The notes under the pieces are model-generated. The model ran no database searches, was not told the origin of the DNA, and saw only the letters and a list, made by a program, of their open reading frames with translations. This document shows, piece by piece, positions 11,774-45,367 of a stretch of DNA of 64,000 nt; the stretch's first letter is position 1, and each line of letters begins with the position of its first letter. Both the position numbers and the translations under genes were made by a program. The DNA is from Candidatus Omnitrophota bacterium. Its GTDB lineage: Bacteria; Omnitrophota; Gorgyraeia; Aquiviventales; Aquiviventaceae. The stretch is taken from assembly GCA_023247255.1 (NCBI GenBank), contig JAHFGV010000005.1:6067-70066 (forward strand). Direction: 5' to 3'.

Positions 11774-11882
11774 ATTGCCGATTTTCGATTTTGGGCTGAG
11801 AGAATTTTCGATTGTAGATTTTAGATTGTCGATTGGAAAACACGACAAATCGACAATCGAAAATTGACAATCGACGATTCGT
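11772..11882. repeat. CGATTGTCGATT-unit palindromic element, copy A
   Basis: Starts at the atpF stop. The arms TAGATTGTCGATT and AATCGACAATCGA are complementary. Related to copy B at 19280-19363. Confidence 0.6.
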
Positions 11883-11940
11883 TGGGCCTTAAGCCAAAAG
11901 CCTTGAGCAAACAGATATTTTCCGTAGCCTGCTAGTACGA

Positions 11941-12489: not shown

Positions 12490-12493
12490 GAAA

Positions 12494-14038
12494 ATGGCTC
12501 GATTACATCCTGAAGAAGTCTCACTTGCCTTAAAGCAAGAGATTGAACGTTACAAGAGCCAGGTGCGCTTAGATTCTGTTGGGCGCGTCATCCAGGTGGG
12601 GGATGGGATTGCCCGCATCTATGGCCTCGACGATGCGATGGCTGGGGAGCTTTTGGAATTTCCCGGGCAAACGATGGGGATGGTCTTCAACCTGGAAGAA
12701 CATCACGTCGGCGCGGTCATCTTTGGATCCGACAGACACATCAAGGATGGGGATGGGGTTAAACGCACCAACCGCATCGCCTCTGTTCCGGTTGGAGCAG
12801 CCCTTTTGGGACGTGTGGTGGACGCCTTGGGCCGGCCGCTCGATGGGAAAGGGCCGATCGTCACCGATCATTTTCGCCCGATCGAGTCACGATCCCCCAA
12901 CGTGGTGCAGCGTCAGCCGGTCAAGGAACCAGTGCAGACGGGAATCCAGGCGATCGATGCGATGATTCCCATCGGCCGCGGCCAGCGTGAGCTCATCCTC
13001 GGGGACCGTCAGATCGGAAAGACTGCCATTCTCATCGATACCCTGCTCAACCAGAAGGGCAAAGACCTGTTCTGTATTTATGTCGCCATCGGCCAGAAGC
13101 TCTCCAGCGTCGTTGCCGTCGTGGAAACGCTCCAAAAATACGACGCCATGGATTACACGATCGTCGTCGTAGCGTCCGCGGAAGATCCCGCATCCCTGCA
13201 ATACCTCGCTCCCTATGCCGGCTGCGCGATGGGCGAGGAGTTTATGGCCGTCGGCAAACATGCCCTGTGCGTGTACGACGATCTTTCCAAGCACGCCCAG
13301 GCTTATCGGCAACTCTCCTTGCTTCTGCGTCGTCCTCCTGGCCGCGAGGCCTATCCGGGCGACGTCTTCTACCTCCACTCGCGTCTTTTGGAACGCGCGG
13401 CCAAGCTCCGCGAGGATCTGGGTGGGGGCAGCCTCACCGCCATTCCTGTGATCGAAACTCAGGCGGGTGACGTTTCAGCCTATATTCCAACCAACGTCAT
13501 TTCGATTACGGACGGGCAGATCTACCTCGAAGGGGATCTTTTCTACTCCGGCGTGCGTCCGGCCATCAACGTCGGGCTATCCGTCTCGCGTGTCGGGGGA
13601 AGCGCCCAGACAAAGGCCATGAAAAAAGTGGCCGGCCGTTTGCGTCTCAACCTGGCCCAGTACCGGGAACTGGTTGCATTCACGCAATTCGGCTCGGAAC
13701 TCGATCGAGCGACGCAAGCCCAACTGACGCGTGGGGAGCGAATGGTCGAGATCCTCAAGCAAGGCCAGTATGAGCCCATGAGCCTGGCGCATCAGGTGGC
13801 GATCATTTATGTCGGAGGCCAGGGTCATCTCGACGATATCCCCAAAGATCAGGTCAAGCCATTCGAGGAGGCCTTCCACCGTTTTATCGACGAGCACTAC
13901 CCGGACGTCATTCATGAAATCGAAAAGACCAAAGACCTCTCCGAAACGATTGCCAAGCGCTTGGATGAGGCCGCCGTCAAATGCAAGCAACAATTTTTAT
14001 CAGCAATAGCAAATGGCTCGATGGCACATAGCAGATAG
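12494..14038 (+). CDS. atpA: F1 ATP synthase subunit alpha
   Basis: 514 aa with Walker A GDRQIGKT. The last ~13 codons and the stop lie in the repeat block 14001-14142. Confidence 0.95.
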
Positions 14039-15064: not shown

Positions 15065-15093
15065 TTGACAGGCGTCAAGAAGCAAGGTATCCT
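15065..15093 (+). promoter_or_regulatory. sigma70-like promoter candidate of the TA cassette
   Basis: TTGACA (15065-15070), 17-nt spacer, TATCCT (15088-15093). Begins 5 nt after the atpG stop. Confidence 0.35.
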
Positions 15094-21126: not shown

Positions 21127-22193
21127 TAGATCTGTTGCACAATTGCCCAATTTGTAGCATCCTATCCTTAACGCAGAGGAGGAACAAAGGCATGCTACGA
21201 TTTGCCAAACTCGTGCACCACCCGAGGAAACTCTACAGAATGACGGGACTTACGCTTGACCAGTTCCAGACGCTGACGAATCGGCTCACCCCGCTGTGGG
21301 AGCAAGCGGAACGGATGTGCCTCTCGCAGCGCAAGCGAAAGCCACGCCATCGGGAAAGAGTACCAAGTACAAGCTCTCCACGATGGCGGACAAACTCCTG
21401 TGCGTGCTCAGCTTCTACCGCTTCTACCTCTACCTTTGAGCTGCTCGGCTATCTCGTCGGCCTGGATGCCAGCAATATCTGTCGGCTAAAGCCTCGGCTC
21501 GAACCGCTCATTGAGCAGGCAGCCGATCCAAGCCTGGGGCTGTCGCTCCGCCGTCGGCTCCCGCCCGGCGTCAAGAGAATCGGCACCTGGGAGGAACTCG
21601 TGGAGCGCTGTCCGGACTTCGCAGACGTGGTCACTGATGCGACCAAGCAGGCACGACTCCGTCCACCGCGACGCACCCAGCGGCGCTGGTACTCCGGCAA
21701 ACGTAAGCGCCACACACTCAAGACGCAGTTGAGCATCACTCGGCAGAGTGGCCGGATCCTCCATATCAGTTCAACCGTCCCGGGCCGTGTCCATGACTAC
21801 GCGCTCTTGAAGCGGACGCGACTGGACGAACGGCTGCCGCCGAAGACGCGCCTCACCCTGGATCGGGGGTATGATGGTGCCATGACGGACTATCCGACTC
21901 CCGCTATCGCGCTGCCCGTCAAGCGTCGAGGCAACCACCAGGTCCTGACGCGCTCGGAGCGGGCATTCAACCGCCTCCAGGCGCGGCAGCGGATCATCGT
22001 GGAGCATGTCCCAAGTTGCGTGAAGAAGTACCAGCTCCTCGCGCAGGTCTACCGCCACCGGATCGCGGACTACAACCACCGCTTTCGCAACATTGCGGCC
22101 TTGACGAACTTCCGCCTAACGCCGACGGTGACGTAACCGAACCCGGACGCGCGGAGCCTTCATCGTGTCAAGGGCAACTGCGCAATAGGTCTA
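21127..22193 (+). mobile_element. IS element (IS5/Harbinger-type DDE_Tnp_4 transposase)
   Basis: Imperfect terminal inverted repeats: TAGATCTGTTGCACAATTGCCC (21127-21148) against the reverse complement of 22172-22193 (about 17/21). One transposase ORF lies inside. Confidence 0.7.
21192..22136 (+). pseudogene. DDE_Tnp_4 transposase with compensating frameshifts
   Basis: ATG 21192 follows GAGGAGG. Core motifs DATKQARLRP, YSGKRKRHTLK, PGRVHDY and DRGYDG are present. The family-typical segment KYKLSTMADKLLCVLSFYRFYL is readable only in the +2 frame between about 21350 and 21431. Confidence 0.6.
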
Positions 22194-22278
22194 TTGAATT
22201 AGCTCATGTTGAAATGTAGTGGAACTTGTAGTGGCTGAGCTAACGTGAAAGTACAGTTTCGTAGATGAGGAGCTAACC

Positions 22279-22812
22279 GTGAAGAAGCTATCGCTGGCAA
22301 TTAGGCTCATAGCGGTCTTGCTAATTCTTAATGGAGCGGGAAGGGTAGCTGTTGTTGCTTTTGGCCTGGTAGTCTTTTCAAGAGCGATGGAACCAATCGA
22401 GCTATCGCCAGAGTGGGAAAAGGTCTTGAGCAGAACAGTCCAACGGGGCGCGATTTCACCCGAAGAAGCTGTGCAAAGGAGAGAGCAGGCTAAAAAGGTA
22501 CGTGAGCAGCAAGGGGCGTTCCCTGAGTTTAGGTCTTGGGGTGCAGTACAGGTGCTTGCGCTCATAACCAGTTTACTTGGCATGGGGAAGCTGATTGCTG
22601 GTATCGGTATCTTAATGCTGAGGGATTGGGCGCGGACGTTAGCCGTGTGGCAGTCTGGATTGTGGATTGCGTTTAGTTTTTCGTTCCAGTTATTGCTCAG
22701 GGTTTCTCAAAAGTTCCATAATGTTATCCTAGGCCATCAACAAGTAGGCCATACGGTTGGTCAATGGGTCATGTTCTTCTGCTGGGTTATCTTGAATGGC
22801 TACCTCATCTAG
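22279..22812 (+). CDS. hypothetical membrane protein
   Basis: 177 aa with a GTG start and 4 predicted TM segments. No family recognised. Confidence 0.4.
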   Translation: MKKLSLAIRLIAVLLILNGAGRVAVVAFGLVVFSRAMEPIELSPEWEKVLSRTVQRGAISPEEAVQRREQAKKVREQQGAFPEFRSWGAVQVLALITSLLGMGKLIAGIGILMLRDWARTLAVWQSGLWIAFSFSFQLLLRVSQKFHNVILGHQQVGHTVGQWVMFFCWVILNGYLI

Positions 22813-22888
22813 CTTTTCCTTCAACCTTCGGTGAAAGCACAGTTTCAAAAGCAAACGTAGCTCGTTTCGTCAGCTTTCACACTTAAAA

Positions 22889-23098
22889 TCACATCCTGCT
22901 CGACACTCCTCCTGACACCGCCACAGGAAATCGGTTAACATCCTTGTCGTACTCAGGTGAGAGATGCGCGTAATGCTCCATCGTAATTCTGGGGTTTGAG
23001 TGTCCCATCCATTTCTGGATTTTGAAAATGCTGACTTCTGCCTGAGCGACTTGGTGGTGAAGCGAAAGAGCTTGACGAATACAATAGAATATAATACA
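22889..23098 (-). pseudogene. tyrosine recombinase (phage integrase) C-terminal remnant
   Basis: A minus-strand frame not listed in the track reads ..LSLHHQVAQAEVSIFKIQKWMGHSNPRITMEHYAHLSPEY... This covers box II with the catalytic His and Tyr context. Only about 69 codons are open. Confidence 0.6.
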
Positions 23099-23123
23099 TT
23101 ATAGATATATTCAGGAGGCTCCC

Positions 23124-23366
23124 ATGGCAAAAGTGGTCACGGTACGGCTTTCGGAGGAGGACTATCGAAAGATTGCAGCCGTCGCAAAACGTGAGCGGCG
23201 CCCGCTTTCGAACTTTATGACGCTGATGGTGATCAAGGGCATCGAGGAGGGCGATTACGTCGATGCCGTGGAGATGGATCAGATCCTCGCGGACAAGTCT
23301 CTGAGGGCTAAGTTACGGGCAGGGCACTACGACGCCAAGCGACGCAAAGGCAAGCTCGTTGGCTGA
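23124..23366 (+). CDS. CopG/RHH-family antitoxin
   Basis: 80 aa with an N-terminal ribbon-helix-helix (KVVTVRLSEEDYRKIAAVAKRERRPLSNFM). GGAGG lies upstream. Confidence 0.75.
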   Translation: MAKVVTVRLSEEDYRKIAAVAKRERRPLSNFMTLMVIKGIEEGDYVDAVEMDQILADKSLRAKLRAGHYDAKRRKGKLVG

Positions 23367-23637
23367 TTTTCGTATCTTCGAGACCTCACAGTTTCAGAAG
23401 GACCTTCAGCAGGACTTCCGAGGGCAACAGGCGCGCATTGAACGCAAGCTCGCCACGTATGTCTATCCCCAGCTGCGAGCGAATTCCTACATCGGGAAGA
23501 ATATCAAGAAACTTCGGGATGCCGTTCCTGAGACCTGGCGGTATCGCATCGGGGATTACCGATTTTTCTACAGGGTCGATGAGCGGCAACGACTCATCTT
23601 TATGCTGACTGCCGACCATCGTGGTCACGCGTATTGA
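23359..23637 (+). CDS. RelE/ParE-family toxin
   Basis: 92 aa with WRYRIGDYRFFYRVDERQRLIFMLTADHR. Overlaps the antitoxin gene by 8 nt. Confidence 0.8.
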   Translation: MADFRIFETSQFQKDLQQDFRGQQARIERKLATYVYPQLRANSYIGKNIKKLRDAVPETWRYRIGDYRFFYRVDERQRLIFMLTADHRGHAY

Positions 23638-23768
23638 ACGATAACCCTGAAGTGATCAGCTTAACAGTTGACGGCAGGAAAAATCCACGATACCATCATC
23701 CCCTCGACGAGAAGCTGGAAGATTTTCTCTCATTACACACTCCACCTTAAACATTACACAGCTTTTCA

Positions 23769-23842
23769 GGGGGCGTAGCTCAATTGGTTAGAGTGGCGGC
23801 CTGTCGAGCCGTAGGTTGCGGGTTCGAGCCCCGTCGCCCCCG
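23769..23842 (+). tRNA. tRNA-Asp (anticodon GTC)
   Basis: Acceptor GGGGGCG/CGCCCCC, D-arm GCTC..GAGT, anticodon loop CTGTCGA, T-loop TTCGAGC. Confidence 0.9.
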
Positions 23843-23927
23843 TTTTTGAACTGACGGAAGCCGTTATCTCGGAAGAGGTGACGGCTTCGTCGTCTTCTGG
23901 GATGAAAAAACGTAACCGGGTTGAAGC

Positions 23928-24068
23928 TGTTTTTATGATGATCCACAGCCAGCTCTTGTACGAAATTCTCAGCCGGTTGATCCATCGGACCGAGAAGTCG
24001 TGGAACGTGTAACCGCAGCGTTTACAGCGGTACCGTTTACCCACGATCCTTTGGTTTTTCAAGCACAC
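23928..24068 (-). pseudogene. IS1595-like transposase N-terminal zinc-ribbon fragment
   Basis: KRYRCKRCGYTFHDFSVRWINRLRISYKSWLWII resembles the IS1595-family N-terminus as I recall it. The rest of track ORF 23766..24068 is antisense to the tRNA and was ignored. Confidence 0.4.
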
Positions 24069-24200: not shown

Positions 24201-24875
24201 ATGGGTGACGAACCAAGAGCCTTCATGGGCCAATTCCTCTCTCGTATGGAGCCTTTCAGACGACTCAGCCAGGCTGAACGGCTACGGCTTGCTGCTGTCG
24301 CCCGTGAGAAACGCTATGACAAAGGCGACACCATCTTCCGCGCAGGTCAGCCAGCCGATGCCGTCTGCGTCGTCAGAGAAGGCCGCGTCCACTTGATGAA
24401 ATTTCTCGAAGGCGGGCAGGCGTCCACGACGTGCGTCATGACGCCCGGGGAAACGTTCTGTTGTCTGCCGGCGCTTGACGGAAAACCGTACCCCGTGGAT
24501 GCCGTCGCTGCAGTGGACTCCACGGTCATTTGCATTCCTACCAGCGCCTTCCATGAGCTCCTGCGCAAGAACCCCGCGTTCCTCCAAGACTCACTCTGCC
24601 TCTTCTGCGATCGGCTGCGCCAGGTCGAGGACAAGAGTTGCATGACCTACGACTCCGTCGAGCGGCGGCTGGCCAAATCACTCCTCATGCTCTCAAAGAA
24701 GTTCGGCCCGACGATTCCGCTGACCAAACAGGAGCTGGCCGAGCTGGCCAATACCACCCAGGAGACCACGATCCGAATTTTAAGCCAACTGAGCAAGCAA
24801 GGGGTGATTCGTTCCGCCCGCGGGAAAACCACGATCCTGCGCCCAGAGAAGCTCTCCGCCTTCCTCGACCCGTAA
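24201..24875 (+). CDS. Crp/Fnr-family transcriptional regulator
   Basis: ATG 24201. cNMP-binding-like barrel (YDKGDTIFRAGQPADAVCVVREGRVHL) plus a C-terminal HTH (LTKQELAELANTTQETTIRILSQL). No N-terminal Cys cluster. Confidence 0.8.
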   Translation: MGDEPRAFMGQFLSRMEPFRRLSQAERLRLAAVAREKRYDKGDTIFRAGQPADAVCVVREGRVHLMKFLEGGQASTTCVMTPGETFCCLPALDGKPYPVDAVAAVDSTVICIPTSAFHELLRKNPAFLQDSLCLFCDRLRQVEDKSCMTYDSVERRLAKSLLMLSKKFGPTIPLTKQELAELANTTQETTIRILSQLSKQGVIRSARGKTTILRPEKLSAFLDP

Positions 24876-24882
24876 GCCCTTC

Positions 24883-24896
24883 CTGACGGACGTCAT
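24883..24896. promoter_or_regulatory. Crp/Fnr-type dyad site 1
   Basis: CTGAC-GGAC-GTCAT, followed by AGAA. Confidence 0.45.
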
Positions 24897-25043
24897 AGAA
24901 ATCCTCTAGACCGCAAGGTATCGTTGCGGGTAGCCACGTCACAGAGGAGGTGACTCCGTCGGTTTTGCAAGACTACACTCATTGGACGACGAGGAGTTGC
25001 GGAAGCCTCCAAGGGAGATCCCACGCAACTCCATCATAATGAC

Positions 25044-25057
25044 ATGACGTACGTCAT
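25044..25057. promoter_or_regulatory. Crp/Fnr-type dyad site 2
   Basis: ATGAC-GTAC-GTCAT, a perfect 14-nt palindrome. TACAGT lies at 25080-25085. Confidence 0.5.
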
Positions 25058-25107
25058 AGAAGGATTCCCTGTTGAGCGCTACAGTTAGATATGAAAGGAG
25101 GCGCAGG

Positions 25108-25761
25108 ATGAACGCGGTCGAGCGTCTGCGGCGGGATCACACGATCCTCAGAGCCAAGCTGAGCGTCTTGGAAGGGGCGCTGACCATGGGGTCGGAGACA
25201 TGGTTCGTGCTCCGGGAAATTTGCCACGCGCTCTCTCGCCAGCTCCAGGATCACATCAAACGTGAAGAGGAGCTGGTCACGGCGTGCAAAGAAGCACTGC
25301 CCGACGACGTGCTGGCCCATCTCACCGTCGGGCATAAGGACGAGCCTGCGTTGCTGCGGACGATCAACCGGCTGTTTATCGAGGAGCAGGGGCATTCTCT
25401 TGCGAGCATCAGGCCGTCGTTGACGAGGCTCATTCTCGGCCTGCGTGGTCACATGGACGAAGAGGAGGCCGAGTTGTTCCCGGCGATTGAAGGGGTCCTG
25501 AGCGACCATGAAGCAGCGGAGGTTCAAGAGCCGCTTCCGCCTGTCAGGCTGCGCGAGGAGATGACGGTCAACCATGTACTCCATACTTACCCGCAAACCA
25601 AACCACTCCTTGAACGGCTCTTCATCAACGTTCCGTATGAGGGCTACGACTGCCTAGATGAAGTCGCCTGGAGACGGGGAATGGACTGCTGCCAATTCAT
25701 CGGGCTGCTTGAGGAGGCGATCAGCGTGGCGTACCACTGTGATGAGATCGTAGCAGCATGA
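25108..25761 (+). CDS. hemerythrin-domain protein with DUF1858/ScdA-N-like C-terminal domain
   Basis: ATG 25108 follows AAAGGAGG. H/E-rich HHE pattern (RRDH, LQDHIKREEE, HMDEEEAELFP). C-terminus reads MTVNHVLHTYPQTKPLLERLF. Confidence 0.65.
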   Translation: MNAVERLRRDHTILRAKLSVLEGALTMGSETWFVLREICHALSRQLQDHIKREEELVTACKEALPDDVLAHLTVGHKDEPALLRTINRLFIEEQGHSLASIRPSLTRLILGLRGHMDEEEAELFPAIEGVLSDHEAAEVQEPLPPVRLREEMTVNHVLHTYPQTKPLLERLFINVPYEGYDCLDEVAWRRGMDCCQFIGLLEEAISVAYHCDEIVAA

Positions 25762-25848
25762 GCTCGCTTTTGACTTGACGAACCACGAGCTTGTTAATAA
25801 GATGAAACACGCGATGGGTCGACAGGGTGTTGTGAGGAGCCGTCCAGC

Positions 25849-26925
25849 GTGAACCTCCTCGTTGTGGGACTCAGTCATCGCACCGCGCCGCTCGAATTGC
25901 GCGAGCTGCTGGCGATCCCGTCACGCGAGTTGCCCGACACACTCGGCGATCTTCATACCCAGTTCGGGATCGATGAAGCGGTGATCCTGTCGACCTGCAA
26001 TCGGGTTGAGATCTACGTCATCACACCAGACCCCTCCGCAACCTCCTACGGCCTCATCGACTTCTTGAGTCATCGAAGCCACGTGGCCCCCGAGGCGTTC
26101 CAATCCCGGATGTATTGCCTAACGGGACCTGACGCGGTGAGACAGCTCTTTGGCGTCACTGCAGGGCTGGATTCGATGGTCCTTGGGGAGTCAGAAATCA
26201 CGGCCCAAGTGAAACAAGCCTATCGGGTGGCACAAACCGAAGAGACAACCGGGCTTGTGCTCCATCGCCTCTTCCAGAAAGCCTTGCACACGGCAAAGGT
26301 CATTCGATCCAAGACACGCTTAGGCTTTGGCCAAGCCTCCATCGGATCAATCGTTGTCGCGCTTGCCAGGAAACTCTTCGAAGGGCAACTTCAAAATTGC
26401 GAAGTCTTGCTTTGGGGAGCCGGAAAGGCGGCGGAATCGACTGCACGGTATCTCATCAAGAACGGGGTGGGCCAGTTGTGGATTGTCAACCGCACACCGC
26501 TCAAAGCGCGGGATCTTGCGACGCTTTGCCAAAGCGGCTGGCTCTCGTGGGAGCAGGCGTTGAAGCACCTCGCCCACGTCGATATTGCCATCGTCTGCAC
26601 CCAAGCGCCGCACTACGTCATCGATCAAGGCGACCTCGATGCGGTTGCGGCTCAGCGCGGCAGCCGCCCCCTGTGTCTCGTTGACCTGGCGGTGCCTCGC
26701 AACGTCGAGCCGTCCCTCGCGCGGCATCCCGGTGTGCGCCTCTACAACATCGATGATCTCCAAACCATTACGCAGGCTGCACAATCGCAGCGTGAACAGG
26801 AACGCGAACGCTCTGACGCGCTCATTCAGGAGCAGGTCAACCATTTCTCTCGTTGGTGGATGGCAGTTTCCCACAAGAAGGAGGATGTTCCATGCCGATC
26901 CGTCGAGGCCTTCTCGTCGGTGTGA
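25849..26925 (+). CDS. hemA: glutamyl-tRNA reductase (short C-terminus)
   Basis: GTG start. Motifs VVGLSHRTAPLELRE, STCNRVEIY, GESEI and GAGKAAE are present. At 358 aa it is shorter than the ~420 aa I recall as typical. Confidence 0.85.
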   Translation: MNLLVVGLSHRTAPLELRELLAIPSRELPDTLGDLHTQFGIDEAVILSTCNRVEIYVITPDPSATSYGLIDFLSHRSHVAPEAFQSRMYCLTGPDAVRQLFGVTAGLDSMVLGESEITAQVKQAYRVAQTEETTGLVLHRLFQKALHTAKVIRSKTRLGFGQASIGSIVVALARKLFEGQLQNCEVLLWGAGKAAESTARYLIKNGVGQLWIVNRTPLKARDLATLCQSGWLSWEQALKHLAHVDIAIVCTQAPHYVIDQGDLDAVAAQRGSRPLCLVDLAVPRNVEPSLARHPGVRLYNIDDLQTITQAAQSQREQERERSDALIQEQVNHFSRWWMAVSHKKEDVPCRSVEAFSSV

Positions 26926-28118
26926 GTCTCGTCGCGGCGCTTACGCTCGGAGAATCAGCGTGGGCAACGATCGAGAACCTCAAAAGCTACAAGGCAGCCT
27001 ATCCCGATAAAGATCCCAAGGCCTATTCGTGCAAGGCCTGCCACGAGGGCCTCATCGGGAAGAAAGACAACCTCAACGCCTATGGTCTCACCTTGCAGAA
27101 GTTCAAAGTGGATGCCGGGGCGAAGAAATTGACCGAAGAAGATTTTCGGGCGTTCGAGGCTGCGGATGCTGATGGGGATGGCGCCTCCAATCTTGATGAG
27201 CTGGACGCGGGCACTGATCTGAATGATCCCACGTCCGTGCCGGAGGGCGCTGGGCAAACGCCAGAAAAAAAAGAAGAAAGCCCAGGCACTGAGCAGCAGA
27301 CAAGCCCTCCAGGCGGCGCGTCGCAACTGAATCCAGGGACACTGAAACAGTTGCAGGCCTACCTGGAGGAGCAGATCGTCCCAGACGTTCAAGCGGCGCC
27401 AGAGGAATCGTCAGTGTCTAGGCGGCATGACGACAAAACAGCGTCCAACGCCAAATCCTCCCAACCCGAACAGGCTGAGTACGTGGGGATGGAGACCTGC
27501 GCGATGTGTCATAACAAGCAGCACCAGGAATTTCTCCACTCAACCCATGCCAGGATCGCAATCCCCGGAGAGACCAAGGCGCAAGGTTGTGAGACCTGTC
27601 ATGGGCCCGGCAGTCTGCACGTTGCTGCCGGTGGCGGTCGTGGCGTCGGTGGGATTATCAATCCGAAGAAGGATCCCGGCGCCTGTTTTGCCTGTCACCT
27701 CGACAAGAAAGCGGAATTTCGTTTGCCCCATCACCATCCCGTGATGGAAGGCAAGATGAGTTGTGCGGATTGCCACAATCCCCACGGTGAGGATGTGCGG
27801 CCGTGGTCAGCGACGACGCTGAAGGATATCAATGAGGCCTGCTTTCGGTGCCACAAGGAACAGCGCGGCCCATTCGCCTGGGAACACGAGGCGCTGCGGG
27901 AAGGTTGCACGACCTGTCACAAGGTTCATGGCTCGATTCACGAGAAGATGCTGCTCGTCCGGGACAACAACTTGTGCCTGCGCTGCCATACGCAGACGAA
28001 CTTCCCGACCATTGGCAGGTCCAGCCATGCTGGCCGGCTTCCCCAAGGGACGTGCTTTAGCGCGGGATGCCATACGGCGGTTCACGGATCGAACTTCGAC
28101 GATCACCTCCGCTACTAA
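26892..28118 (+). CDS. periplasmic multihaem cytochrome c (MtrA/DmsE-like body)
   Basis: ATG 26892 follows AAGGAGG, then a signal peptide. 8 CXXCH motifs plus CFSAGCH (CX4CH). C-terminal motif CHTAVHGSN. TSP3-like motif DADGDGASNLDELDAGTDLNDP. Confidence 0.8.
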   Translation: MPIRRGLLVGVSLVAALTLGESAWATIENLKSYKAAYPDKDPKAYSCKACHEGLIGKKDNLNAYGLTLQKFKVDAGAKKLTEEDFRAFEAADADGDGASNLDELDAGTDLNDPTSVPEGAGQTPEKKEESPGTEQQTSPPGGASQLNPGTLKQLQAYLEEQIVPDVQAAPEESSVSRRHDDKTASNAKSSQPEQAEYVGMETCAMCHNKQHQEFLHSTHARIAIPGETKAQGCETCHGPGSLHVAAGGGRGVGGIINPKKDPGACFACHLDKKAEFRLPHHHPVMEGKMSCADCHNPHGEDVRPWSATTLKDINEACFRCHKEQRGPFAWEHEALREGCTTCHKVHGSIHEKMLLVRDNNLCLRCHTQTNFPTIGRSSHAGRLPQGTCFSAGCHTAVHGSNFDDHLRY

Positions 28119-28130
28119 AGGAGACGCCTC

Positions 28131-30191
28131 ATGCGCGCGATGCTTTGTTGGACGTTGGGAGGAATTCTGGGTGTGAGTCTATGGTTACCCTCACGCCTTG
28201 CTGAGGCTGCGGACCCGGAGGTTTCCCTTTCCCTGGAGCCCATCCGTTATGCGTTCGTCAATGGCGACCGGGATAAGTTTAGCGCCCATCATTGGATGAA
28301 AGACAACTACGTCGGAGGCGTGAAGGAGTTTTCCTTCGACTACGCCCTTGCGGATGGAACGCAGCTCTCCGCAGAAAGCCACGCGCTCATTGATCAAAAC
28401 GATTTGGGCGCTGACGTCTCACTTAAGAAAGACTCACTGGGCTTTTTCAATCTCGGCTACTCCGAATTCCGCAAGTATTACGATAAAACCGGTGGTGTGT
28501 ACTATCCGTTTACCACCCTTCGCAGCAACGATACGTTTAAGGACCTTGCTCTGGACATCGGTCACCTCAGCCTTGAAAGCGGGTTGACCCTGGAAGGCTG
28601 GCCTGACCTGACCTTCGAGTACGAGCGCGAATTCAAGGATGGGGCGAAATCGCGCCTGAGCTGGGTCCCAACGAAGGAAGGGACCACCACCCGGAATATC
28701 GGTCCCTCGTGGCAAGATCTTGATGAGGTCGTCGACTCATTTGGCCTCAAAGCCGATCATGAGATCGCAGGATTCACTCTCAAGGGCGAGCAGCGATGGG
28801 AGTTCGTGCGGACCGAAACCTTTCGGGAGGAGAAATTTCTCGCGACAACAGGTGTCGCAGCAGACACCAAGATTCGACGGCAGGACCAAGCCCCGCAAGC
28901 CACCTTGATGACGACGACGTTAGGCGGGGAGCGTTCGTTCTTCGCTGACAAGATATTTACATCGATGGGCTACCATTTCGCCCACATGGATAATCGGGAA
29001 TTCGAGACAATCGTCGAGTCGAACGCGGCTGGAACCGTAACAAACTTTTCGAATCCGAAGCAGATCCGTAATGCGCGCGCCGATAACGACTACGATACCC
29101 ATACCTGGGTAGGGAACTTCATGATCAACCCCTGGAACTGGCTGAGCCTCGGGACCAAACTCAAGGCTGAAGCGATTCACCGGGAGAGCGACTCAAGCTA
29201 TCCGGCGGATGCCTCGCCGAACTCCACGGGCGGCAGCACCCCGAATGGGGCGATCGACTCTCTCGTGGCCAGTCTCAACAAGAACAAGGCCGTTCGCTGG
29301 GGGGAAGGAGTGTCCCTGCGGTTTTTTGGCATCCCACGCACCGCTCTCTACACTGATTTGGAGTTGGAGCAATCGCGAGTAATCTTGGCAGAGGATCGGA
29401 AAGATTTAGTGACGATCCCGAATGTCAACGAGGATTTCAGCCGCTACACTGTCACCAACGTCCGACGAGGGACGTGGACATTGGGCGGCCATGTCGCGCC
29501 GGGGTCGTTCCTCGATCTGACGACGCAGGTCCGGCGACGTGTCAACAACAACGACTACGATGACCAACGGGAAACCGTCGCCTCAGGGACGGCGCTGTCC
29601 GCATTCGTCGATATGCAGAACATCCATACGGATGAGTTCACCACGCGGGCCACGCTGCGGCCCTCTCGGTGGTTTCGCCCCTCGTTCCGGTACCAGTTCC
29701 GTAACGATAAATATGCGACTCGGACGGAAGCGCAGGATACCGTAAAGACGGGTATGCTCTCGAACATCTACACTTTTGACGTAACGGCACAACCGTTGCG
29801 AGACCTCACGACCACCGCCTCCTTCTCGCGTCAGACGGCCGTCACCACCACTCCCGCGGGTTCGGCGTCGTCAGCAAACGTTCCTGGGTTTCGCGCAAAT
29901 GTCAACACGTGGCTTTTCAGCACCGACTACAGCCCAAGGGCGAATGTGAGTATCACCAACGCGCTGCTCTATTCGCGCGCAAGAAACTTCAACGATTTTA
30001 CCGCCAGCGGGATGCCGTTCGGGACCTCGTTTGATCGGCTGGATGTGACCACAGGTCTGAAGTGGGCGCTGACCGAGGATACGTCTGTTGGCACCGAATA
30101 CGCATTCTACTCGTATCTGCCCAATTCGCTGACCGAAGTGGGCGACTACCATGCCCACGTCATCTGGCTCGAGTTGTCGAAGCAGTTTTGA
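28131..30191 (+). CDS. outer-membrane beta-barrel protein (MtrB/PioB-like porin candidate)
   Basis: 686 aa with a signal peptide (..SRLAEA/AD) and alternating aromatic/Gly-rich strands. The C-terminal ..WLELSKQF ends in Phe. Begins 13 nt after the cytochrome gene. Confidence 0.6.
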   Translation: MRAMLCWTLGGILGVSLWLPSRLAEAADPEVSLSLEPIRYAFVNGDRDKFSAHHWMKDNYVGGVKEFSFDYALADGTQLSAESHALIDQNDLGADVSLKKDSLGFFNLGYSEFRKYYDKTGGVYYPFTTLRSNDTFKDLALDIGHLSLESGLTLEGWPDLTFEYEREFKDGAKSRLSWVPTKEGTTTRNIGPSWQDLDEVVDSFGLKADHEIAGFTLKGEQRWEFVRTETFREEKFLATTGVAADTKIRRQDQAPQATLMTTTLGGERSFFADKIFTSMGYHFAHMDNREFETIVESNAAGTVTNFSNPKQIRNARADNDYDTHTWVGNFMINPWNWLSLGTKLKAEAIHRESDSSYPADASPNSTGGSTPNGAIDSLVASLNKNKAVRWGEGVSLRFFGIPRTALYTDLELEQSRVILAEDRKDLVTIPNVNEDFSRYTVTNVRRGTWTLGGHVAPGSFLDLTTQVRRRVNNNDYDDQRETVASGTALSAFVDMQNIHTDEFTTRATLRPSRWFRPSFRYQFRNDKYATRTEAQDTVKTGMLSNIYTFDVTAQPLRDLTTTASFSRQTAVTTTPAGSASSANVPGFRANVNTWLFSTDYSPRANVSITNALLYSRARNFNDFTASGMPFGTSFDRLDVTTGLKWALTEDTSVGTEYAFYSYLPNSLTEVGDYHAHVIWLELSKQF

Positions 30192-30634
30192 TGTGTCCTC
30201 GTCAGCCCCTCAGTCGCCGGGTTTTCCTGGCGCTTTGCCTCAGGGGTGGTGGGCTTGCCCTGCTTGGGGCTGCGCTCTATCCCATCCTGCGGTATCTCTA
30301 TCCTCCCCGAGGCGTTGAATCCTCCGTCTCCAGCGTTGCGGCGGCGAAGGTGGGGGATCTGGCGACGAATACCGCGAAGATCTTCCGGTTCGGCAGTCGG
30401 CCCGGCCTCCTCATTCGTTCCCCCCAAGGCGAGCTCAAAGCCTTCTCGGCGGTGTGCACCCACCTCAACTGCACCGTTCAGTACGACAGCGACGCGAGCA
30501 TCATCTGGTGCGCCTGCCACAACGGCAAGTATGACTTAAACGGACAGGTCATCTCCGGCCCTCCCCCACGACCACTCGATGCCTACCAGGTGAACGTCCG
30601 CGGAGAAGACATCATCGTCTCCAAGACGTCCTAG
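30191..30634 (+). CDS. Rieske [2Fe-2S] protein
   Basis: ATG 30191 overlaps the porin stop (TGATG). RR-containing N-terminus plus a TM helix. Cluster motifs CTHLNC and CACHNG. Confidence 0.85.
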   Translation: MCPRQPLSRRVFLALCLRGGGLALLGAALYPILRYLYPPRGVESSVSSVAAAKVGDLATNTAKIFRFGSRPGLLIRSPQGELKAFSAVCTHLNCTVQYDSDASIIWCACHNGKYDLNGQVISGPPPRPLDAYQVNVRGEDIIVSKTS

Positions 30635-30638
30635 CCTG

Positions 30639-31709
30639 ATGGGGTACTTCGAGCACCTACGCGCATTCTTGCATGAGCGCTACCGGCTGGGTGGCCTAGT
30701 GGATCTCGCCACGCATAAGACGGTCCCCATCCACCGCCACAGCGTCTGGTACTACTGGGGCGGCATGACGCTCGTGCTCATCGGCATCCAGATCATCAGC
30801 GGTGTGCTGCTGTTGCTGTACTACCGCCCATCAGCCCAGGAAGCCTTCGAGTCGGTTCGCTTCCTCATGACGCGGGTGCAATTCGGGTGGCTGGTGCGCT
30901 CCGTGCACGCGTGGGCGGCGAACCTGGCGATCTTCTGCGCGATGGTGCATCTGGCCAGCGTCTTTTTCCTGAAGGCGTATCGGCCACCCCGTGAACTGAC
31001 CTGGGTGACCGGGGTTGTGTTGTTGTTTCTGCTATTTGGTTTCGGATTTACCGGCTACCTCCTGCCGTGGAATACGCTGGCGTTTTTCGCCACCAAGGTC
31101 GGCACGGAAATCGCGGGGATTGTGCCCGTCGTCGGGCCTGTCGTTCAAATCTTTCTGCGCGGTGGAAGCGACGTTGGGGATGTGACGATCACGCGGTTCT
31201 TTTGGCTTCATGTCGCAATCCTGCCAATCGGCCTGATGACACTCTTAAGCCTTCATCTGCTCATGATCCAGCTCCAGGGCATGAGCAAACCGCCTTGGGT
31301 TAAGAGCAATCGGTCCATGCCGTTCTTTCCGAATTTTTTCCTGCGCGATCTGGTTGCCTGGTCACTCATACTGGGGATAGTGCTGTGTGTGAGCGTGCAC
31401 TGGCCCGCGACGCTCGGCGAAAAGGCCGATCCGTTCGCTCCGACACCCGTGGGCATCCAACCGGAATGGTATTTTCTCTGGATGTTTCAGACGCTCAAGA
31501 TTTTCCCTGGCCACCTGTTTGGTCTCGAGGGTGAGTTAGTCGCGGTGGGATTGACCGGACTGGCGGGTCTTGCGCTGCTACTCGTTCCATGGCTGGATCG
31601 CCCCGCCCGACGGGAGCAATCATCCTGGCTGGTATGGGCTGTTGGCGTGTTGGGCATTGCCTATGTCGTCGGGATGACCGGCTACGCGCTATGGGTGAAA
31701 CCTCACTGA
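30639..31709 (+). CDS. cytochrome b (b6 plus subunit-IV-like, fused)
   Basis: 356 aa with WYYWGGMTL, VRSVHAWAANL and GYLLPWN, plus the paired His context. Confidence 0.9.
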   Translation: MGYFEHLRAFLHERYRLGGLVDLATHKTVPIHRHSVWYYWGGMTLVLIGIQIISGVLLLLYYRPSAQEAFESVRFLMTRVQFGWLVRSVHAWAANLAIFCAMVHLASVFFLKAYRPPRELTWVTGVVLLFLLFGFGFTGYLLPWNTLAFFATKVGTEIAGIVPVVGPVVQIFLRGGSDVGDVTITRFFWLHVAILPIGLMTLLSLHLLMIQLQGMSKPPWVKSNRSMPFFPNFFLRDLVAWSLILGIVLCVSVHWPATLGEKADPFAPTPVGIQPEWYFLWMFQTLKIFPGHLFGLEGELVAVGLTGLAGLALLLVPWLDRPARREQSSWLVWAVGVLGIAYVVGMTGYALWVKPH

Positions 31710-32995
31710 TGACAGGGTATCGTCTACGGGTGGCACTCGGACTTCTGCTGTGCCCTGGCTTTGTGTGGTCGGCTGAGAAGCCGAATAGTTGTGTCGAGTG
31801 CCACAAGCAGGTGGAGGGCCAAACGCGAGGGCCGGCCACACTGGCTGCAGAGGACGTGCATTTCCAGCGAGGCTTGTCCTGCGTGGATTGCCATGGCGGC
31901 GATCCAACAGCGATGGATCCTCAAGCCGCGATGGACCCGGCTAAAGGGTTCCTCGGTCGCCCGAGGCGGGAGCAGATTCCCCAGTTTTGCGCCCGGTGCC
32001 ACGCGGATCCGGCCACCATGCGCAAGTACAATCCCAATCTTCCGACTGACCAATACGCGAAGTACCTGACCAGTCAGCACGGGAAGCGCTTCAGTGTTGG
32101 CGATGCCGATGTGCCGGTCTGCATCAGTTGCCACGAGGCGCACGGCATCCGCTCGAAAAAAGACCCAGCCTCGCCGGTCTACCCGACGAACATCCCCGGA
32201 ACCTGCGCGAGCTGCCACAGCGACGCGTCGATCATGGACAAACACGGCTTGCCGGTGAACCAGCACTGGGACTACTCGCAGAGCGTCCACGGCCAGGCGC
32301 TGTTGTTCCGTGGCGATCGTGCGGCTCCCCATTGCGCGAGCTGCCACGGATCGCACGAAGCGGCCAAACCTAGGACGGTCGCAATCGGCAACGTCTGCGC
32401 TCAGTGCCATAGCCTCACGCGCGATCTGTTTGCAAAGAGTCCCCACAAGGCCGCGCATGAAGCCTTAGGGCTTCCGGAGTGCGAGGTCTGCCACGGCAAT
32501 CACCTGATCCGCAAGCCAAGCGACGAGATGCTTGGGACGGGACAAGATGCGGTGTGTGTCAGTTGTCACGAGCCAGGGTCGACCGGCTACGTCACCGCGC
32601 AGCAGATGCGCAGCGCCATCGAGCAACTGAAAACCCACATGGCCAGCGCTGAGGCAGCCGTCAGGCACGCAGCGGAGTTGGGCATGGATGTCGGTGACGC
32701 GGAATTTGAGCTTCGCGAGGCGATGACCCAACTCACGCAAGAGCGCACCTACGTCCACTCTTTCTCCGCCGCAACCATGGAACCCATTGCCGAGGAGGGA
32801 ACTCACCACGCCCTGCGGGCCGAGGGGCAAGCCCGCCAGGCGATCCGTGAGTTTCATTTCCGCCGTCAGGGCTTGTGGGTCACCCTGATCATTCTCGCCC
32901 TCGTGGTTTCTGGACTCCTTCTGAAGATTCGAGACTTGGAGCGATCGGACTCGACAGACAAGATGGACGACACATCCCCTCGCGACTCCTCGTAA
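31709..32995 (+). CDS. nonahaem cytochrome c with C-terminal membrane anchor
   Basis: ATG 31709 overlaps the cyt b stop (TGATG). Signal peptide, 9 CXXCH motifs, a helical region and a C-terminal TM (LWVTLIILALVVSGLLL). Confidence 0.8.
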   Translation: MTGYRLRVALGLLLCPGFVWSAEKPNSCVECHKQVEGQTRGPATLAAEDVHFQRGLSCVDCHGGDPTAMDPQAAMDPAKGFLGRPRREQIPQFCARCHADPATMRKYNPNLPTDQYAKYLTSQHGKRFSVGDADVPVCISCHEAHGIRSKKDPASPVYPTNIPGTCASCHSDASIMDKHGLPVNQHWDYSQSVHGQALLFRGDRAAPHCASCHGSHEAAKPRTVAIGNVCAQCHSLTRDLFAKSPHKAAHEALGLPECEVCHGNHLIRKPSDEMLGTGQDAVCVSCHEPGSTGYVTAQQMRSAIEQLKTHMASAEAAVRHAAELGMDVGDAEFELREAMTQLTQERTYVHSFSAATMEPIAEEGTHHALRAEGQARQAIREFHFRRQGLWVTLIILALVVSGLLLKIRDLERSDSTDKMDDTSPRDSS

Positions 32996-33032
32996 AATCT
33001 GCCATTTCCGGCTATGATATCTGCGGAGCATC

Positions 33033-34550
33033 ATGAACCACACATCGATGCCAAAACCCCCCAGCCTCTTGCGCAACCCGCTGAGCTTTTTCGGCCTCGC
33101 CGTCGCCATCACGAGCACGGCGTTTGGCCTGCCCATGATGTTCGTCGACATGTTCAGTCGACGCACGCATCCGTATCTTGCTGTGCTCGTTTATCTCGTG
33201 CTGCCGTTCGTTGCAGCAGGCGGCGTCGGCTTAGTCCTGCTTGGAGCATTGTGGGAACGCCGTCGAAGACGCCGACGGCCTGGCATGGTAGTGCCACCCC
33301 TGCCATCCATCGATCTCAATCGAAGCGCCCACCAGATTGCTGTGGCTGGAGCACTCACAACGTTCATGACTATTGTGGCCATGCTCTCCGTGACCGGCTA
33401 CCGGGCGTACCACTTTACGGAGTCGGTCAAATTCTGCGGCCTGGTCTGTCACCAGGTGATGAAACCGGAGTATACGGCGTATCAGTATTCTCCGCATGCG
33501 CGCGTGGCCTGCACCCAGTGCCATGTCGGGCCTGGTGCAAGCTGGTTCGTGCGCTCAAAGATCACAGGAGCGTATCAGGTTTACGCGGTTACATTCAACA
33601 AGTACCCGCGCCCGATTCCCACACCCGTGAAGAGCCTGCGTCCGGCGCAAGAAACTTGCGAGCAATGCCACTGGCCGGCGAAGTTTTTTGGCGCGCAGCA
33701 GAAAACCTTCACGCACTACATGGCGGATGAGCACAACAGCCCGTGGCAGATTCAGATGCTGCTGAAAATCGGCGGCGGCGATCCGTCGGTTGGCGCTCCT
33801 GCGGGCATTCACTGGCACATGAACATCAAGAACGATATTTATTACATTGCCTCAGATGAGCAGCGGGAAACCATTCCGTGGGTGCGCGTGGTCGAGCCGC
33901 AGGGACGCATCGCCGAATATATGTCGATGGAAAGTCCGCTCTCGCCGGAGCAGATCGTAAAGAGCGAAGTGCGCCGCATGGACTGCGTGGATTGCCACAA
34001 CCGGCCCTCCCACATCTTTCGACCGCCGGATCGTGCGGTGGAGGAGGCCTTCGAGACCGGCCGGCTAGAGCGGTCCCTGCCGTATCTGAAGCGCGAAGCC
34101 ATAAGGTTGTTGGCGCAAGAGTACCCCTCGGAGGAGCAGGCGTTATCAGCCATCCTGAAAGGCTTGGCCGAGTTCTACCAGAAGGACTATCCAGAGGTGT
34201 ATCGCGAACAGGCAGTCGCTATTCAACAGGCCACAGCTGAGTTGCAACGCATCTATTCGAGGAATTTCTTTCCCGAGATGCGCGCCGATTGGCGCGCCCA
34301 TCCCAACCACATGGGCCATCTAAATGCCGAAGGCTGCTTCCGCTGCCACGATGGGCTGCACAAAAACCGCGAGGGCAAGGTGCTAACCAAAGACTGTACC
34401 GCCTGTCACACGATCTTGGCCCAGGGGCCACCTGAGGAGGTGGCGCAAGCCAAGCTTGAAGCGCAGCCGTTTCGCCACCCGGTCGACGTGGGGATGGACG
34501 TGACGGAATTTAAGTGCAGCCAGTGTCATACCGGCACGAGCGGTCTCTAG
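33033..34550 (+). CDS. membrane-anchored multihaem cytochrome (NapC/NirT-related, ImcH-like architecture)
   Basis: 505 aa with N-terminal TM helices. CGLVCH (CX3CH) followed by 6 CXXCH motifs. Confidence 0.7.
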   Translation: MNHTSMPKPPSLLRNPLSFFGLAVAITSTAFGLPMMFVDMFSRRTHPYLAVLVYLVLPFVAAGGVGLVLLGALWERRRRRRRPGMVVPPLPSIDLNRSAHQIAVAGALTTFMTIVAMLSVTGYRAYHFTESVKFCGLVCHQVMKPEYTAYQYSPHARVACTQCHVGPGASWFVRSKITGAYQVYAVTFNKYPRPIPTPVKSLRPAQETCEQCHWPAKFFGAQQKTFTHYMADEHNSPWQIQMLLKIGGGDPSVGAPAGIHWHMNIKNDIYYIASDEQRETIPWVRVVEPQGRIAEYMSMESPLSPEQIVKSEVRRMDCVDCHNRPSHIFRPPDRAVEEAFETGRLERSLPYLKREAIRLLAQEYPSEEQALSAILKGLAEFYQKDYPEVYREQAVAIQQATAELQRIYSRNFFPEMRADWRAHPNHMGHLNAEGCFRCHDGLHKNREGKVLTKDCTACHTILAQGPPEEVAQAKLEAQPFRHPVDVGMDVTEFKCSQCHTGTSGL

Positions 34551-34627
34551 GCCTGCCCGCCTGTCGTCCAAAAGTGTGATCTGGGTCATAGTTCGTCTCC
34601 CTGCGTTCTGAGAAGATTACTTAGGCG

Positions 34628-36183
34628 ATGGGGGAGGCTCTGACGAGAAACGGCGGACGGATACGGCGCGTAGCGCTCTGCGCGCTCTTCACGTGCTGGA
34701 CCTGGGCGCCGCGGGCCATGGGAGAGGGCAGCGTCTCTCCAGCCGCGCAAGAGATCGACAACGCTGCCTGTCTGGCTTGCCATGGTGATCCCTCGGCAAT
34801 CCGCTTTGTGGACCACGCGAAGTTCGAGGCTTCCGTCCATGGGAGTTTTTCCTGCACTACCTGCCACGCGGATGTCGTCACCATTCCCCATGACGTGCCG
34901 CTGGAGTCGATCAGTCAGTCGCAGATCCCCCTCACGTGCGGCCAGTGCCATGAAGACATCAAGGCTGCCTACCAGCGGAGTATCCACGCTCAGGCGGTCG
35001 CCGCCGGCAAGCGCCATGCGCCCGTCTGCACCGACTGCCATGGTGAGCACTATGTGGCCCCGGTGAAAACGGAGGCGTCGAAAGTGTTTCCCTCGCACAT
35101 CCCGCAGACGTGCGCACAGTGCCACGCGGCGGAGCGCATCGTTACGAAGTATCGGTTGCCGGCGTACGTGGTCGATACGTACATGAGCAGCTTCCACGGC
35201 CTCATACACCAACTGGGATCCGTGACGGCCGCGAACTGCGCCTCCTGCCACGGGGCGCATGACATTCTCCCCGCGAACGACGAGCGTTCCTCGGTCAATC
35301 CGAAGAACCTGCCGAAAACCTGTGGCTCCTGCCATCCGGGCGTCGGCGCGTTCGTCGCACAGGGAAAGATTCACTCCGGCACACAGCCCGGAGCGGAACA
35401 TCCTGCGGTGACATTCGTTCGCCGGTTCTACCTCATCCTCATCGGTTTGGTCATTGGGGGCATGCTGATTCACAACGGTCTCGATTTCCGCAAAAAACTC
35501 TCGATCCATTACCAACGGATGGCCGCCAGCAGCGCGGTACAACGGATGAGTCTTAATGAGCGCCTTCAACATGGCGTGCTCTTGATCGCCTTTGCGACGC
35601 TCGCCTATACCGGATTTGCGTTAAAGTTCCCGCATGTCTGGTGGGCACGCCCCTTCATGGGCCGCGTCGACTGGCGCCGCCTGGGGCATCGGGGAGCGGC
35701 GGTCGTCTTCTGCCTGCTCGCCGGCTACCACCTCTGGTTCATGACGTGCACGAAACGGGGGCGGAGCGAGTTGCGCGCCTTGCGACCCGAACGAGCCGAC
35801 TTCACGCACCTGAGACGGATGCTCGGCTTCTATCTGGGTAGGAGCCGGGAGCAGCCGCGCGCGGCGCGGTACAGCTACGTGGAGAAAGCGGAGTATTGGG
35901 CGCGGTCTGGGGTTCAGTCATCATGGTGCTCACCGGCGGTCTGATGACCTGGCAGAATTGGACATTGCGCTTCCTGCCCAAGTGGGCGTTCGATGTTTTT
36001 ATCACGGTGCATTTTTATGAAGCACTCCTCGCATGCTTGGCGATCCTTATTTGGCACCTCTACTTCGTCATGTACGATCCCGATGAATACCCGATGAAGT
36101 GGACGTGGATCAGCGGCAAGGCCTCACCCACCGACGAGGCACATCGGCATCCAGGCGACGCCGAGGAAGGCAATCCAGGCTGA
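34628..36183 (+). pseudogene. CbcL-like fusion of a heptahaem cytochrome c to an FdnI/HydC-type cytochrome b membrane domain, frameshifted
   Basis: Signal peptide, 7 CXXCH motifs, then TM helices. The reading frame breaks near 35899-35905 (..KAEYWA / VWGSVIMVLTG..). The track shows two ORFs, 34628..35944 and 35896..36183. Confidence 0.65.
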
Positions 36184-36269
36184 ATCCTCTAAGACTTAAC
36201 GCCGTGTTGGCGCAAAAACATACCTCGGAGGCGCAAACGTCCTCTGTATGATAAAATAGAAACCTTGCC

Positions 36270-39820: not shown

Positions 39821-39834
39821 ATGACGTTCGTCAT
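39821..39834. promoter_or_regulatory. Crp/Fnr-type dyad site 3
   Basis: CC-ATGAC-GTTC-GTCAT-GGAAGA. Confidence 0.5.
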
Positions 39835-45365: not shown

Positions 45366-45367
45366 CC

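Follow-up and report, generated by a model that had tools for sequence, protein, structure and literature searches.

A Crp/Fnr-type dyad at gene boundaries in an Omnitrophota contig and the predicted class II regulon of the adjacent regulator

The dyad and its distribution in the window

The stretch analysed here, 64,000 nucleotides of contig JAHFGV010000005.1 from a Candidatus Omnitrophota bacterium (hereafter the window), carries a gene for a Crp/Fnr-family regulator and, next to it and at further gene boundaries downstream, a short inverted repeat (dyad) of the form ATGACNNNNGTCAT (ATGAC-N4-GTCAT). Downstream of the regulator gene lie a hemerythrin gene (25108), hemA, four multihaem cytochrome genes with a cytochrome b gene, and ResB/CcsA genes (to 39709), followed by genes for FeoB and a DtxR-FeoA fusion. 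The order continues with an XRE regulator, TatA, an EB_dh/dihaem cytochrome, NxrA of a nitrite oxidoreductase (NXR), a Fer4 beta subunit, a NarJ-like chaperone and genes for molybdenum cofactor (Moco) synthesis, and ends with a divergent pair encoding a fatty-acid desaturase and a cupredoxin-like protein, and pdxH. The first 24 kb hold pyrDF, nuoJ-N, ATP synthase genes, toxin-antitoxin pairs, a transposase gene and two tRNAs. An initial annotation of this DNA had taken the dyad for a Crp/Fnr-type operator and its recurrence for the mark of a regulon under the neighbouring regulator.

The three perfect copies that it reported (25044, 39821 and 43309) were confirmed and stand far above the 0.10 expected in the whole window; none of 100 dinucleotide-preserving shuffles contained three or more. 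Copies with at most one mismatch numbered seven against 1.78 expected, a count reached in 0/100 shuffles, and those beyond the perfect copies were 24883, 53169, 62469 and a look-alike at 24426. The class with two mismatches was barely enriched (34 versus 22.75 expected), hence the copy at 63284 could not be accepted from its mismatch count; it was accepted owing to its matrix score, the TATTAT hexamer 22 nt past it, and conservation upstream of pdxH in a related locus, L027. All seven sites of the initial annotation (24883, 25044, 39821, 43309, 53169, 62469 and 63284) were recovered and are intergenic or at gene ends, as it had stated; the look-alike at 24426, which was absent from its list, lies inside the regulator open reading frame (ORF). 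The extended CC-dyad-GGAAGA flanks said to be common to 39821 and 43309 are indeed present at both.

A position weight matrix (PWM) was trained on 23 sites from related loci, with the window left out, and its null was taken from 30 Markov-2 simulations (mean maximum 11.8, largest 17.5). The window contains 12 matches scoring at least 15 against 0.07 expected (Table 1; RBS, ribosome-binding site; UTR, untranslated region). Intergenic DNA accounts for 12% of the window, and eight of the nine candidates scoring 12.6 or more fall there or on a stop codon (P ~4e-7); the PWM scan gave no dyad match in the first 24 kb (1-24000), the housekeeping half. Across the family the consensus of the 14-bp dyad is TATGAY-N4-RTCATA, usually followed by GAA, with half-sites in two flavours, TGAC and TGAT. 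The N4 spacer and the flanks differ among dyads and no T-tract is present, while the asymmetric flank (AGAA or GGAA after the dyad) always points toward the downstream gene.

Table 1 Regulator gene, dyads and riboswitch in the window, with matrix scores, -10 hexamers (offset in nt past the dyad) and predicted transcription starts
Feature	Position	Strand	Sequence	PWM score	-10 hexamer	Predicted start	Downstream unit and remarks
Crp/Fnr-family regulator gene, 216 aa	24225-24875	+					cNMP_binding (PF00027, E 4.7e-21, residues 65-152 of long ORF); HTH_Crp_2 (PF13545, E 1.7e-16)
Look-alike, one mismatch	24426-24439		ACGACGTGCGTCAT	17.0 (weaker)			In regulator gene
Dyad	24883-24896	+	CTGACGGACGTCAT	25.9 (strong)	TATCGT, 24919-24924, offset 22		Predicted orphaned promoter of deleted crp2; relic 5'UTR/RBS to ~24978
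Perfect dyad	25044-25057	+	ATGACGTACGTCAT	25.0 (strong)	TACAGT, 25080-25085, offset 22	near 25092	Promoter of hemerythrin-hemA-multihaem cytochrome-ResB/CcsA block, 25108-39709; RBS AAAGGAGG, ATG 25108
Weak extra candidate	34576-34589	+	GTGATCTGGGTCAT	16.3 (weaker)	GAAGAT at +22		Between two cytochrome genes (34550/34628)
Perfect dyad	39821-39834	+	ATGACGTTCGTCAT	26.0 (strong)	TATCCT, 39858-39863, offset 23	near 39870	Upstream of feoB and DtxR/FeoA gene (40196-43254)
Perfect dyad	43309-43322	+	ATGACTCCCGTCAT	24.6 (strong)	TAGGCT, 43346-43351, offset 23		Promoter of XRE (43363-43581), tatA (43587-43760) and NXR cluster (43767-53172)
Dyad	53169-53182	+	ATGACGCGCGTCAG	15.8 (+), 21.9 (-) (strong)	TAGGGT, 53205-53210, offset 22	near 53217	On stop codon of last NXR-cluster gene; promoter of Moco riboswitch and moaA-mobA operon
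Moco riboswitch RF01055	53228-53385	+					Rfam 61.6 bits vs gathering score 36, E 2.3e-12
Dyad	62469-62482	+	ATGATCGCGGTCAT	12.6 (+), 14.7 (-) (weaker)	GACAAT, 62505-62510, offset 22		Between divergent fatty-acid desaturase gene (61233-62384, -) and cupredoxin-like gene (62533-63255, +); RBS GAGGAGG, ATG 62533
Dyad	63284-63297	+	ATGATCTCCATCAT	22.2 (strong)	TATTAT, 63320-63325, offset 22		Promoter of pdxH (63341-63988)

The site at 62469, with a predicted transcription start near 62517, is the weakest of the seven. As a specificity set we used a metagenome scan with the cupredoxin-like protein (80 loci, 336 kb, of unrelated DNA apart from L027), in which the PWM gave only two matches of 14 or more. 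These lie in L027, the nearest relative at 85% identity, at the positions that correspond by orthology to 62469 and 63284. The first of these scores 16.5 and forms a conserved island with GAGAAT at the aligned position, and the second is followed by pdxH. This result supports the two weaker sites and indicates that the matrix is specific. The extra candidate at 34576, with no counterpart upstream of the orthologous cytochrome gene in L009 or L010, remains a weak one.

Two further palindromes were rejected. The look-alike at 24426 encodes T-T-C70-V-M-T, including an invariant cysteine, and is kept in orthologues because of this coding role; an autoregulatory site was discarded, since the coding explanation is simpler and no -10 hexamer stands at the expected offset. 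At 15065-15093 (TTGACAGGCGTCAA) a perfect TTGAC-N4-GTCAA palindrome, HcpR/FNR-like in form, also reads as a canonical sigma-70 promoter (TTGACA-N17-TATCCT) before a MazE-like antitoxin gene (15099), and with a PWM score below 5.3 it was not counted in the dyad family. Its presence indicates that the organism uses normal -35 elements elsewhere.

Promoter architecture and predicted targets

The distance between dyad and -10 element is nearly fixed. Among 50 dyads with at most one mismatch, drawn from the window and the non-redundant related loci, a TAnnnT hexamer begins exactly 22 nt past the dyad in 27 and 23 nt past it in five, against ~0.32 expected per offset; some of these dyads are orthologous copies, hence the 27 of 50 overstates independence, but the peak is still unambiguous. 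From the dyad centre to the first base of the -10 hexamer is 29.5 nt, which puts the centre at -41.5 from the predicted transcription start, where the activator site is centred in class II promoters of FNR and CRP. Neither a sigma-70 two-hexamer promoter nor a -35-like hexamer was found in 24700-25200. Judging from this geometry, the dyads most likely belong to activator-dependent class II promoters.

The predicted targets are largely those proposed initially, with some corrections. The dyad at 43309 does head the XRE-tatA-NXR cluster, but the ORF drawn from 43309 is over-extended and XRE most likely begins at ATG 43363, as in L018. NxrA, a molybdoenzyme of 1207 aa, aligns over its full length with Kuenenia NxrA (7b04; 1848 bits). 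FeoB and DtxR domains were found in the genes at 40196-43254, and the predicted 327-nt feoB leader (39869-40196) has no Rfam match and no convincing ORF. The FeoB ORF itself opens with a Cys-rich extension of 45 residues (CTCCSESICCSES). The window hemerythrin shows a faint RIC-like match.

What had been called a Moco operon leader proved to be a genuine Moco riboswitch, above the Rfam gathering score and with moaA downstream. It was found independently by Rfam and starts 11 nt past the transcription start predicted from 53169. A small ORF (53451-53732) separates it from moaA, and moaC, a mog-like gene, moeA, mobB, moaE, tatC and mobA follow. With an activator site and a riboswitch in succession, Moco synthesis is therefore apparently under double control. 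A second, partial dyad (ATGACGCGTGTGAG, 53152-53165) lies 3 nt upstream of 53169, making a tandem that spans the stop codon with which the NXR cluster ends.

Several predicted transcripts would be leaderless or nearly so, namely those of XRE (43357 to ATG 43363), pdxH (63332 to ATG 63341) and the cytochrome gene behind 34576 (34624 to 34628); likewise, in L024 the -10 hexamer of a second Crp gene ends 6 nt before its ATG. Between nxrA and the Fer4 beta-subunit gene lies a DUF2490 gene (48814-49521) for a predicted outer-membrane beta-barrel, and a DUF2490 gene also adjoins the regulator in L024.

Related loci and the deleted paralogue

Metagenomes contain hundreds of close homologues of the regulator. 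For comparison we used 17 genome loci from metagenome-assembled genomes labelled Planctomycetales or Omnitrophota, mostly from groundwater, and nine metagenome loci around homologues. In 21 of 23 non-redundant loci a dyad lies within ~200 nt past the regulator stop codon. The comparative footprinting that the initial annotation had proposed thus found dyads conserved beside the regulator and at several orthologous promoters, where the dyad is kept while the sequence around it diverges.

Most relatives have, directly behind the regulator gene, a gene for another Crp paralogue (crp2; the called genes encode 227-240 aa), with the dyad in the crp2 promoter. The window from 24883 to ~24978 differs from the crp2 promoter, 5'UTR and RBS of L017/L018 by three substitutions and aligns up to the base before the ATG. 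In place of the crp2 ORF, within 24883-25043, are ~65 nt of unrelated sequence with a hairpin (GGAGTTGCG...CGCAACTCC), and tblastn found no crp2 in the 64 kb window. Since promoter, 5'UTR and RBS remain while the ORF is gone, 24883 is read as an orphaned promoter, which is predicted to read into the hemerythrin promoter. The initial annotation was right to list 24883 as a site, and it scores high, but it belongs to a paralogue deleted here, of which only these upstream elements are left. Dyads beside the regulator without crp2 occur in the window, L025/L026, L011, L012 and L014-L016.

Recurrent members of the predicted regulon across lineages are hemerythrin, crp2, tatA/XRE-NXR, MobA, desaturase, both types of phosphoenolpyruvate carboxykinase (PEPCK) and pyruvate:ferredoxin oxidoreductase (PFOR). 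Dyads precede hemerythrin genes in L001, L002, L006, L009, L017, L018, L019, L022 and L025. Sites comparable to 43309 stand before XRE-tatA-EB_dh in L018 (19640, orthologous), before tatA-EB_dh-NxrA in L024 (16908) and directly after FeoB-DtxR in L003, at the position of 43309. Elsewhere the module of dyad and -10 hexamer precedes genes for MobA, a cysteine desulfurase, a radical-SAM protein, PFOR (L010), desaturase (L015) and Hsp20, and an operon of VIT1 and the regulator. Two non-homologous PEPCKs, the ATP type in L008 (1234) and the GTP type in L009 (7785), each stand behind a dyad with a -10 hexamer at +22. Together with PFOR, they point tentatively to central carbon metabolism as part of the regulon.

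The dyad also accompanies more distant relatives of the regulator that share its cysteine motif (described below). In L107 the gene of a relative with 45% identity adjoins the dyad ATGATCTGGATCATagac, with TATCCT at +23. L108 (1-8666; 43% GC) encodes a regulator with 43% identity and contains five TATGAT-N4-ATCATA sites, which flank the regulator gene, a cox1-3 operon and the gene of an EB_dh dihaem cytochrome. As the box is kept at this low GC content, it follows the protein family even where base composition has shifted strongly.

Some features of these loci stand apart. In L018 the hemerythrin gene is triplicated (11532-13263), with own dyads for two copies (11451, 12544) and none detected before the middle copy. 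In L007 (10822-11115) a dyad after crp2 precedes a gene for a small protein resembling, by eye, the RIC/ScdA N-terminal domain, and then hemA. VIT1 lies upstream of the regulator in nearly all related loci and is absent at the window locus, where the regulon block starts directly after a DDE transposase gene, a ParD/ParE-like pair and a tRNA (23769-23842; the whole at 21135-24068). The missing VIT1 and the adjoining transposase, ParD/ParE-like pair and tRNA suggest a rearrangement at this boundary.

The regulator, its possible signal and its mode of action

The regulator, 100% identical to P0001, has the recognition helix TTQETTIR, in which E180 and R184 do not vary among 120 close homologues. 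The corresponding E and R of CRP (E181, R185) read TGA in CRP/FNR. It reaches no NCBIfam equivalog cut-off (Fnr model 37.8 bits vs 228; CRP model 46 bits vs 266), and its closest solved structure is Thermus Crp (79 bits), with the DNR structure 3dkw at 41 bits. In a library of 1.8 billion, E values of 1e-30 or better are reached by just 39 clusters (50% identity).

The initial annotation noted that the protein lacks the FNR cysteine cluster. There is indeed no N-terminal cluster, but four cysteines (C70, C79, C80 and C139) are present in every orthologue examined down to ~50% identity, and in the 120 close homologues so are C125 and C128. The motif C70-x8-C79-C80-[LI]-P is kept to ~35% identity among cluster representatives, with C128 and/or C139 as a variable fourth cysteine; no description of this combination was found in the literature searched. 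Aligned with CRP, C70, C79 and C80 fall on the cAMP-pocket residues S62, G71 and E72, and the other cysteines fall on the C-helix and hinge. Binding of cAMP is unlikely, since CRP R82 and S83 are replaced by Y and P.

E. coli FNR recognises TTGAT-N4-ATCAA, ligates [4Fe-4S] through C20, C23, C29 and C122, and controls feoAB, moa, nar and cytochrome c maturation genes. The regulator is like FNR in domain architecture, in the 5-N4-5 dyad with a TGA/TCA core, in the E...R pair of the helix and in the spacing from site to -10, and its predicted regulon likewise covers the uptake of Fe(II), the synthesis of Moco together with a Moco riboswitch, a molybdoenzyme of the Nar/Nxr type and the maturation of cytochrome c. 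Unlike FNR, it has neither an N-terminal extension nor C20/C23/C29, its conserved cysteines lie in the beta-roll and C-helix, and the outer base of the half-site is A rather than T (ATGAY vs TTGAT). CRP contacts cAMP through E72, R82 and S83 and binds TGTGA-N6-TCACA, whereas the regulator has C80, Y and P at these positions and a box spacing of N4. Cofactors away from the N-terminus have precedents in CooA, whose effector pocket contains haem, and in B. subtilis Fnr, with Fe-S at the C-terminus. A Crp/Fnr member that contains Fe-S and departs from the E. coli pattern is HcpR2 of D. desulfuricans (PMC5701242).

The closest described box is that predicted for HcpR in Geobacter, Desulfuromonas and cyanobacteria, wyTTGACnnnnGTCAArw (Rodionov et al. 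2005, PMC1274295), which shares the TGAC-N4-GTCA core and the N4 spacing but has T as outer base where A is found here. Like the regulator, HcpR belongs to the Crp/Fnr family, lacks the N-terminal cluster of FNR and has a link to nitrogen-oxide metabolism. It differs in being defined by co-localisation with hcp/frdX (box TTGAC-N4-GTCAA or TGTGA-N6-TCACA), and the similarity of the regulator to characterised members is at the family level only. Neither the window ORFs scanned nor the related-locus neighbours examined included an hcp-like gene. In the open-access literature we found no match to the exact box string, and nothing relevant on a Crp/Fnr regulon in anammox bacteria or in these organisms; for Nitrospira, one paper predicts a role of Fnr and gives no binding motif.

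The domains, the helix residues, the genetic linkage and the class II spacing support the reading first proposed. We consider it likely that the dyad serves as operator for a distinct transcription factor of the Crp/Fnr family, most likely the product of 24225-24875, acting as a class II activator. A dimer of the regulator would bind the dyad ~41.5 bp upstream of the transcription start, stand in for the absent -35 element and bring in RNA polymerase, the way FNR and CRP do at class II promoters. At least six transcription units in the window would then be switched on together: hemerythrin with hemA, the multihaem cytochromes and cytochrome c maturation; feoB with the DtxR/FeoA gene; XRE-tatA-nitrite oxidoreductase; the Moco riboswitch and, behind it, the Moco biosynthesis genes, tatC and mobA; the cupredoxin-like gene and perhaps the desaturase gene divergent from it; and pdxH. 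The identity of the binding protein, its action as an activator and not a repressor, and the transcription starts are inferred from the sequence; for the binding protein this is so because many relatives encode a second paralogue behind the same dyad.

It is fairly improbable that the dyads are bound mainly by another family member, of the crp2 type or a paralogue elsewhere, the adjacent regulator being then the top of a cascade or a sharer of the box. A second Crp gene behind a dyad follows the regulator in L001, L003, L005, L007, L008, L010, L017-L019, L022 and L024, its recognition helix (TRWETSIR / TTTESAIR) keeps E and R, and the TGAC and TGAT half-sites could reflect two proteins. Such an arrangement recalls the ANR-DNR and FixK-NnrR cascades; in Pseudomonas, ANR activates dnr through an FNR box. 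Here, by contrast, the second paralogue is deleted, and none of the targets seen was a nir, nor or nos gene. Three perfect dyads nevertheless remain in a window in which tblastn detects no crp2. Moreover, the dyad stands beside the regulator with no crp2 nearby in L011, L012, L014-L016, L107 and L108.

Repression, in which the bound protein would occlude the upstream part of constitutive promoters, seems more improbable still. Repressors do exist among Crp/Fnr members, such as HcpR2 of D. desulfuricans, proposed to act on hcp (PMC5701242), and the direction of regulation is not readable from sequence alone. The rigid -41.5 geometry (27 of 50 at one offset) combined with the lack of a -35-like hexamer is, however, the signature of an activator-dependent class II promoter in an organism that uses a normal -35 at 15065, whereas repressor sites normally overlap the -10 or the transcription start, or vary in position. 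A non-regulatory repeat (REP-like element, terminator stem or chance palindrome), which the short palindromic form and location at gene ends might suggest, is effectively refuted by the variable spacer and flanks, which indicate no longer repeat unit, the missing T-tract, the fixed distance to the -10, the orientation with downstream genes, the conservation at orthologous promoters amid diverging surroundings, and an enrichment far beyond chance.

Several points nevertheless weigh against class II activation by the adjacent regulator. In many relatives crp2 lies directly behind the dyad and could bind the same box, and its absence is established within the 64 kb window only. The PWM scores of 62469 and 34576 fall inside the null range. 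Binding, the effect on expression and the transcription starts are all predictions. The assignment of regulator to dyad draws no support from covariation between residue and base, the helix having Q here and V in most orthologues while the outer A is constant; for the same reason, an explanation of the outer A by the Gln at the CRP-R180 position was rejected, most orthologues having Val there and yet keeping ATGA[C/T]. Finally, the idea of a cofactor derives from cysteine conservation and alignment, and a single-sequence AlphaFold model (pLDDT 44) was unusable.

If the adjacent regulator is the activator, the content of its regulon suggests an oxygen, redox or NO signal, as it combines Fe(II) uptake, the supply of haem, cytochrome c and Moco, NXR, PFOR, the O2-dependent desaturase and PdxH, and hemerythrin. 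Such a signal may be sensed via the invariant cysteines at cAMP-pocket positions, through a haem-thiolate, a thiol switch or an Fe-S cluster labile to O2, NO or redox changes, and in that case the regulator would, speculatively, be a functional analogue of FNR. A wider proposal, which we put forward tentatively and with some doubt, is that proteins with C-x8-C-C-[LI]-P and a fourth cysteine in the C-helix or hinge may form an uncharacterised Crp/Fnr subfamily that binds a metal cofactor labile to O2, NO or redox changes in the cAMP pocket, has its own box (TATGAY-N4-RTCATA) and would serve, in uncultured groundwater bacteria with NXR, as a master switch for the genes of NXR, Moco, cytochromes and iron uptake.

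The class II paradigm of FNR and CRP is familiar, and in kind this is a solid but conventional regulon prediction, useful to the specialist rather than surprising; the box is a variant and the sensor probably distinct. For a lineage that is uncultured, lives in groundwater and is known from metagenomes only, the result is a concrete and testable regulatory map of the NXR cluster and its cofactor, cytochrome and iron supply, with transcription starts predicted to within a few bases. Moco synthesis would have two layers of control, an activator site and a riboswitch, and the conserved cysteines of this Crp/Fnr subfamily suggest a sensing chemistry unlike that of classical FNR.

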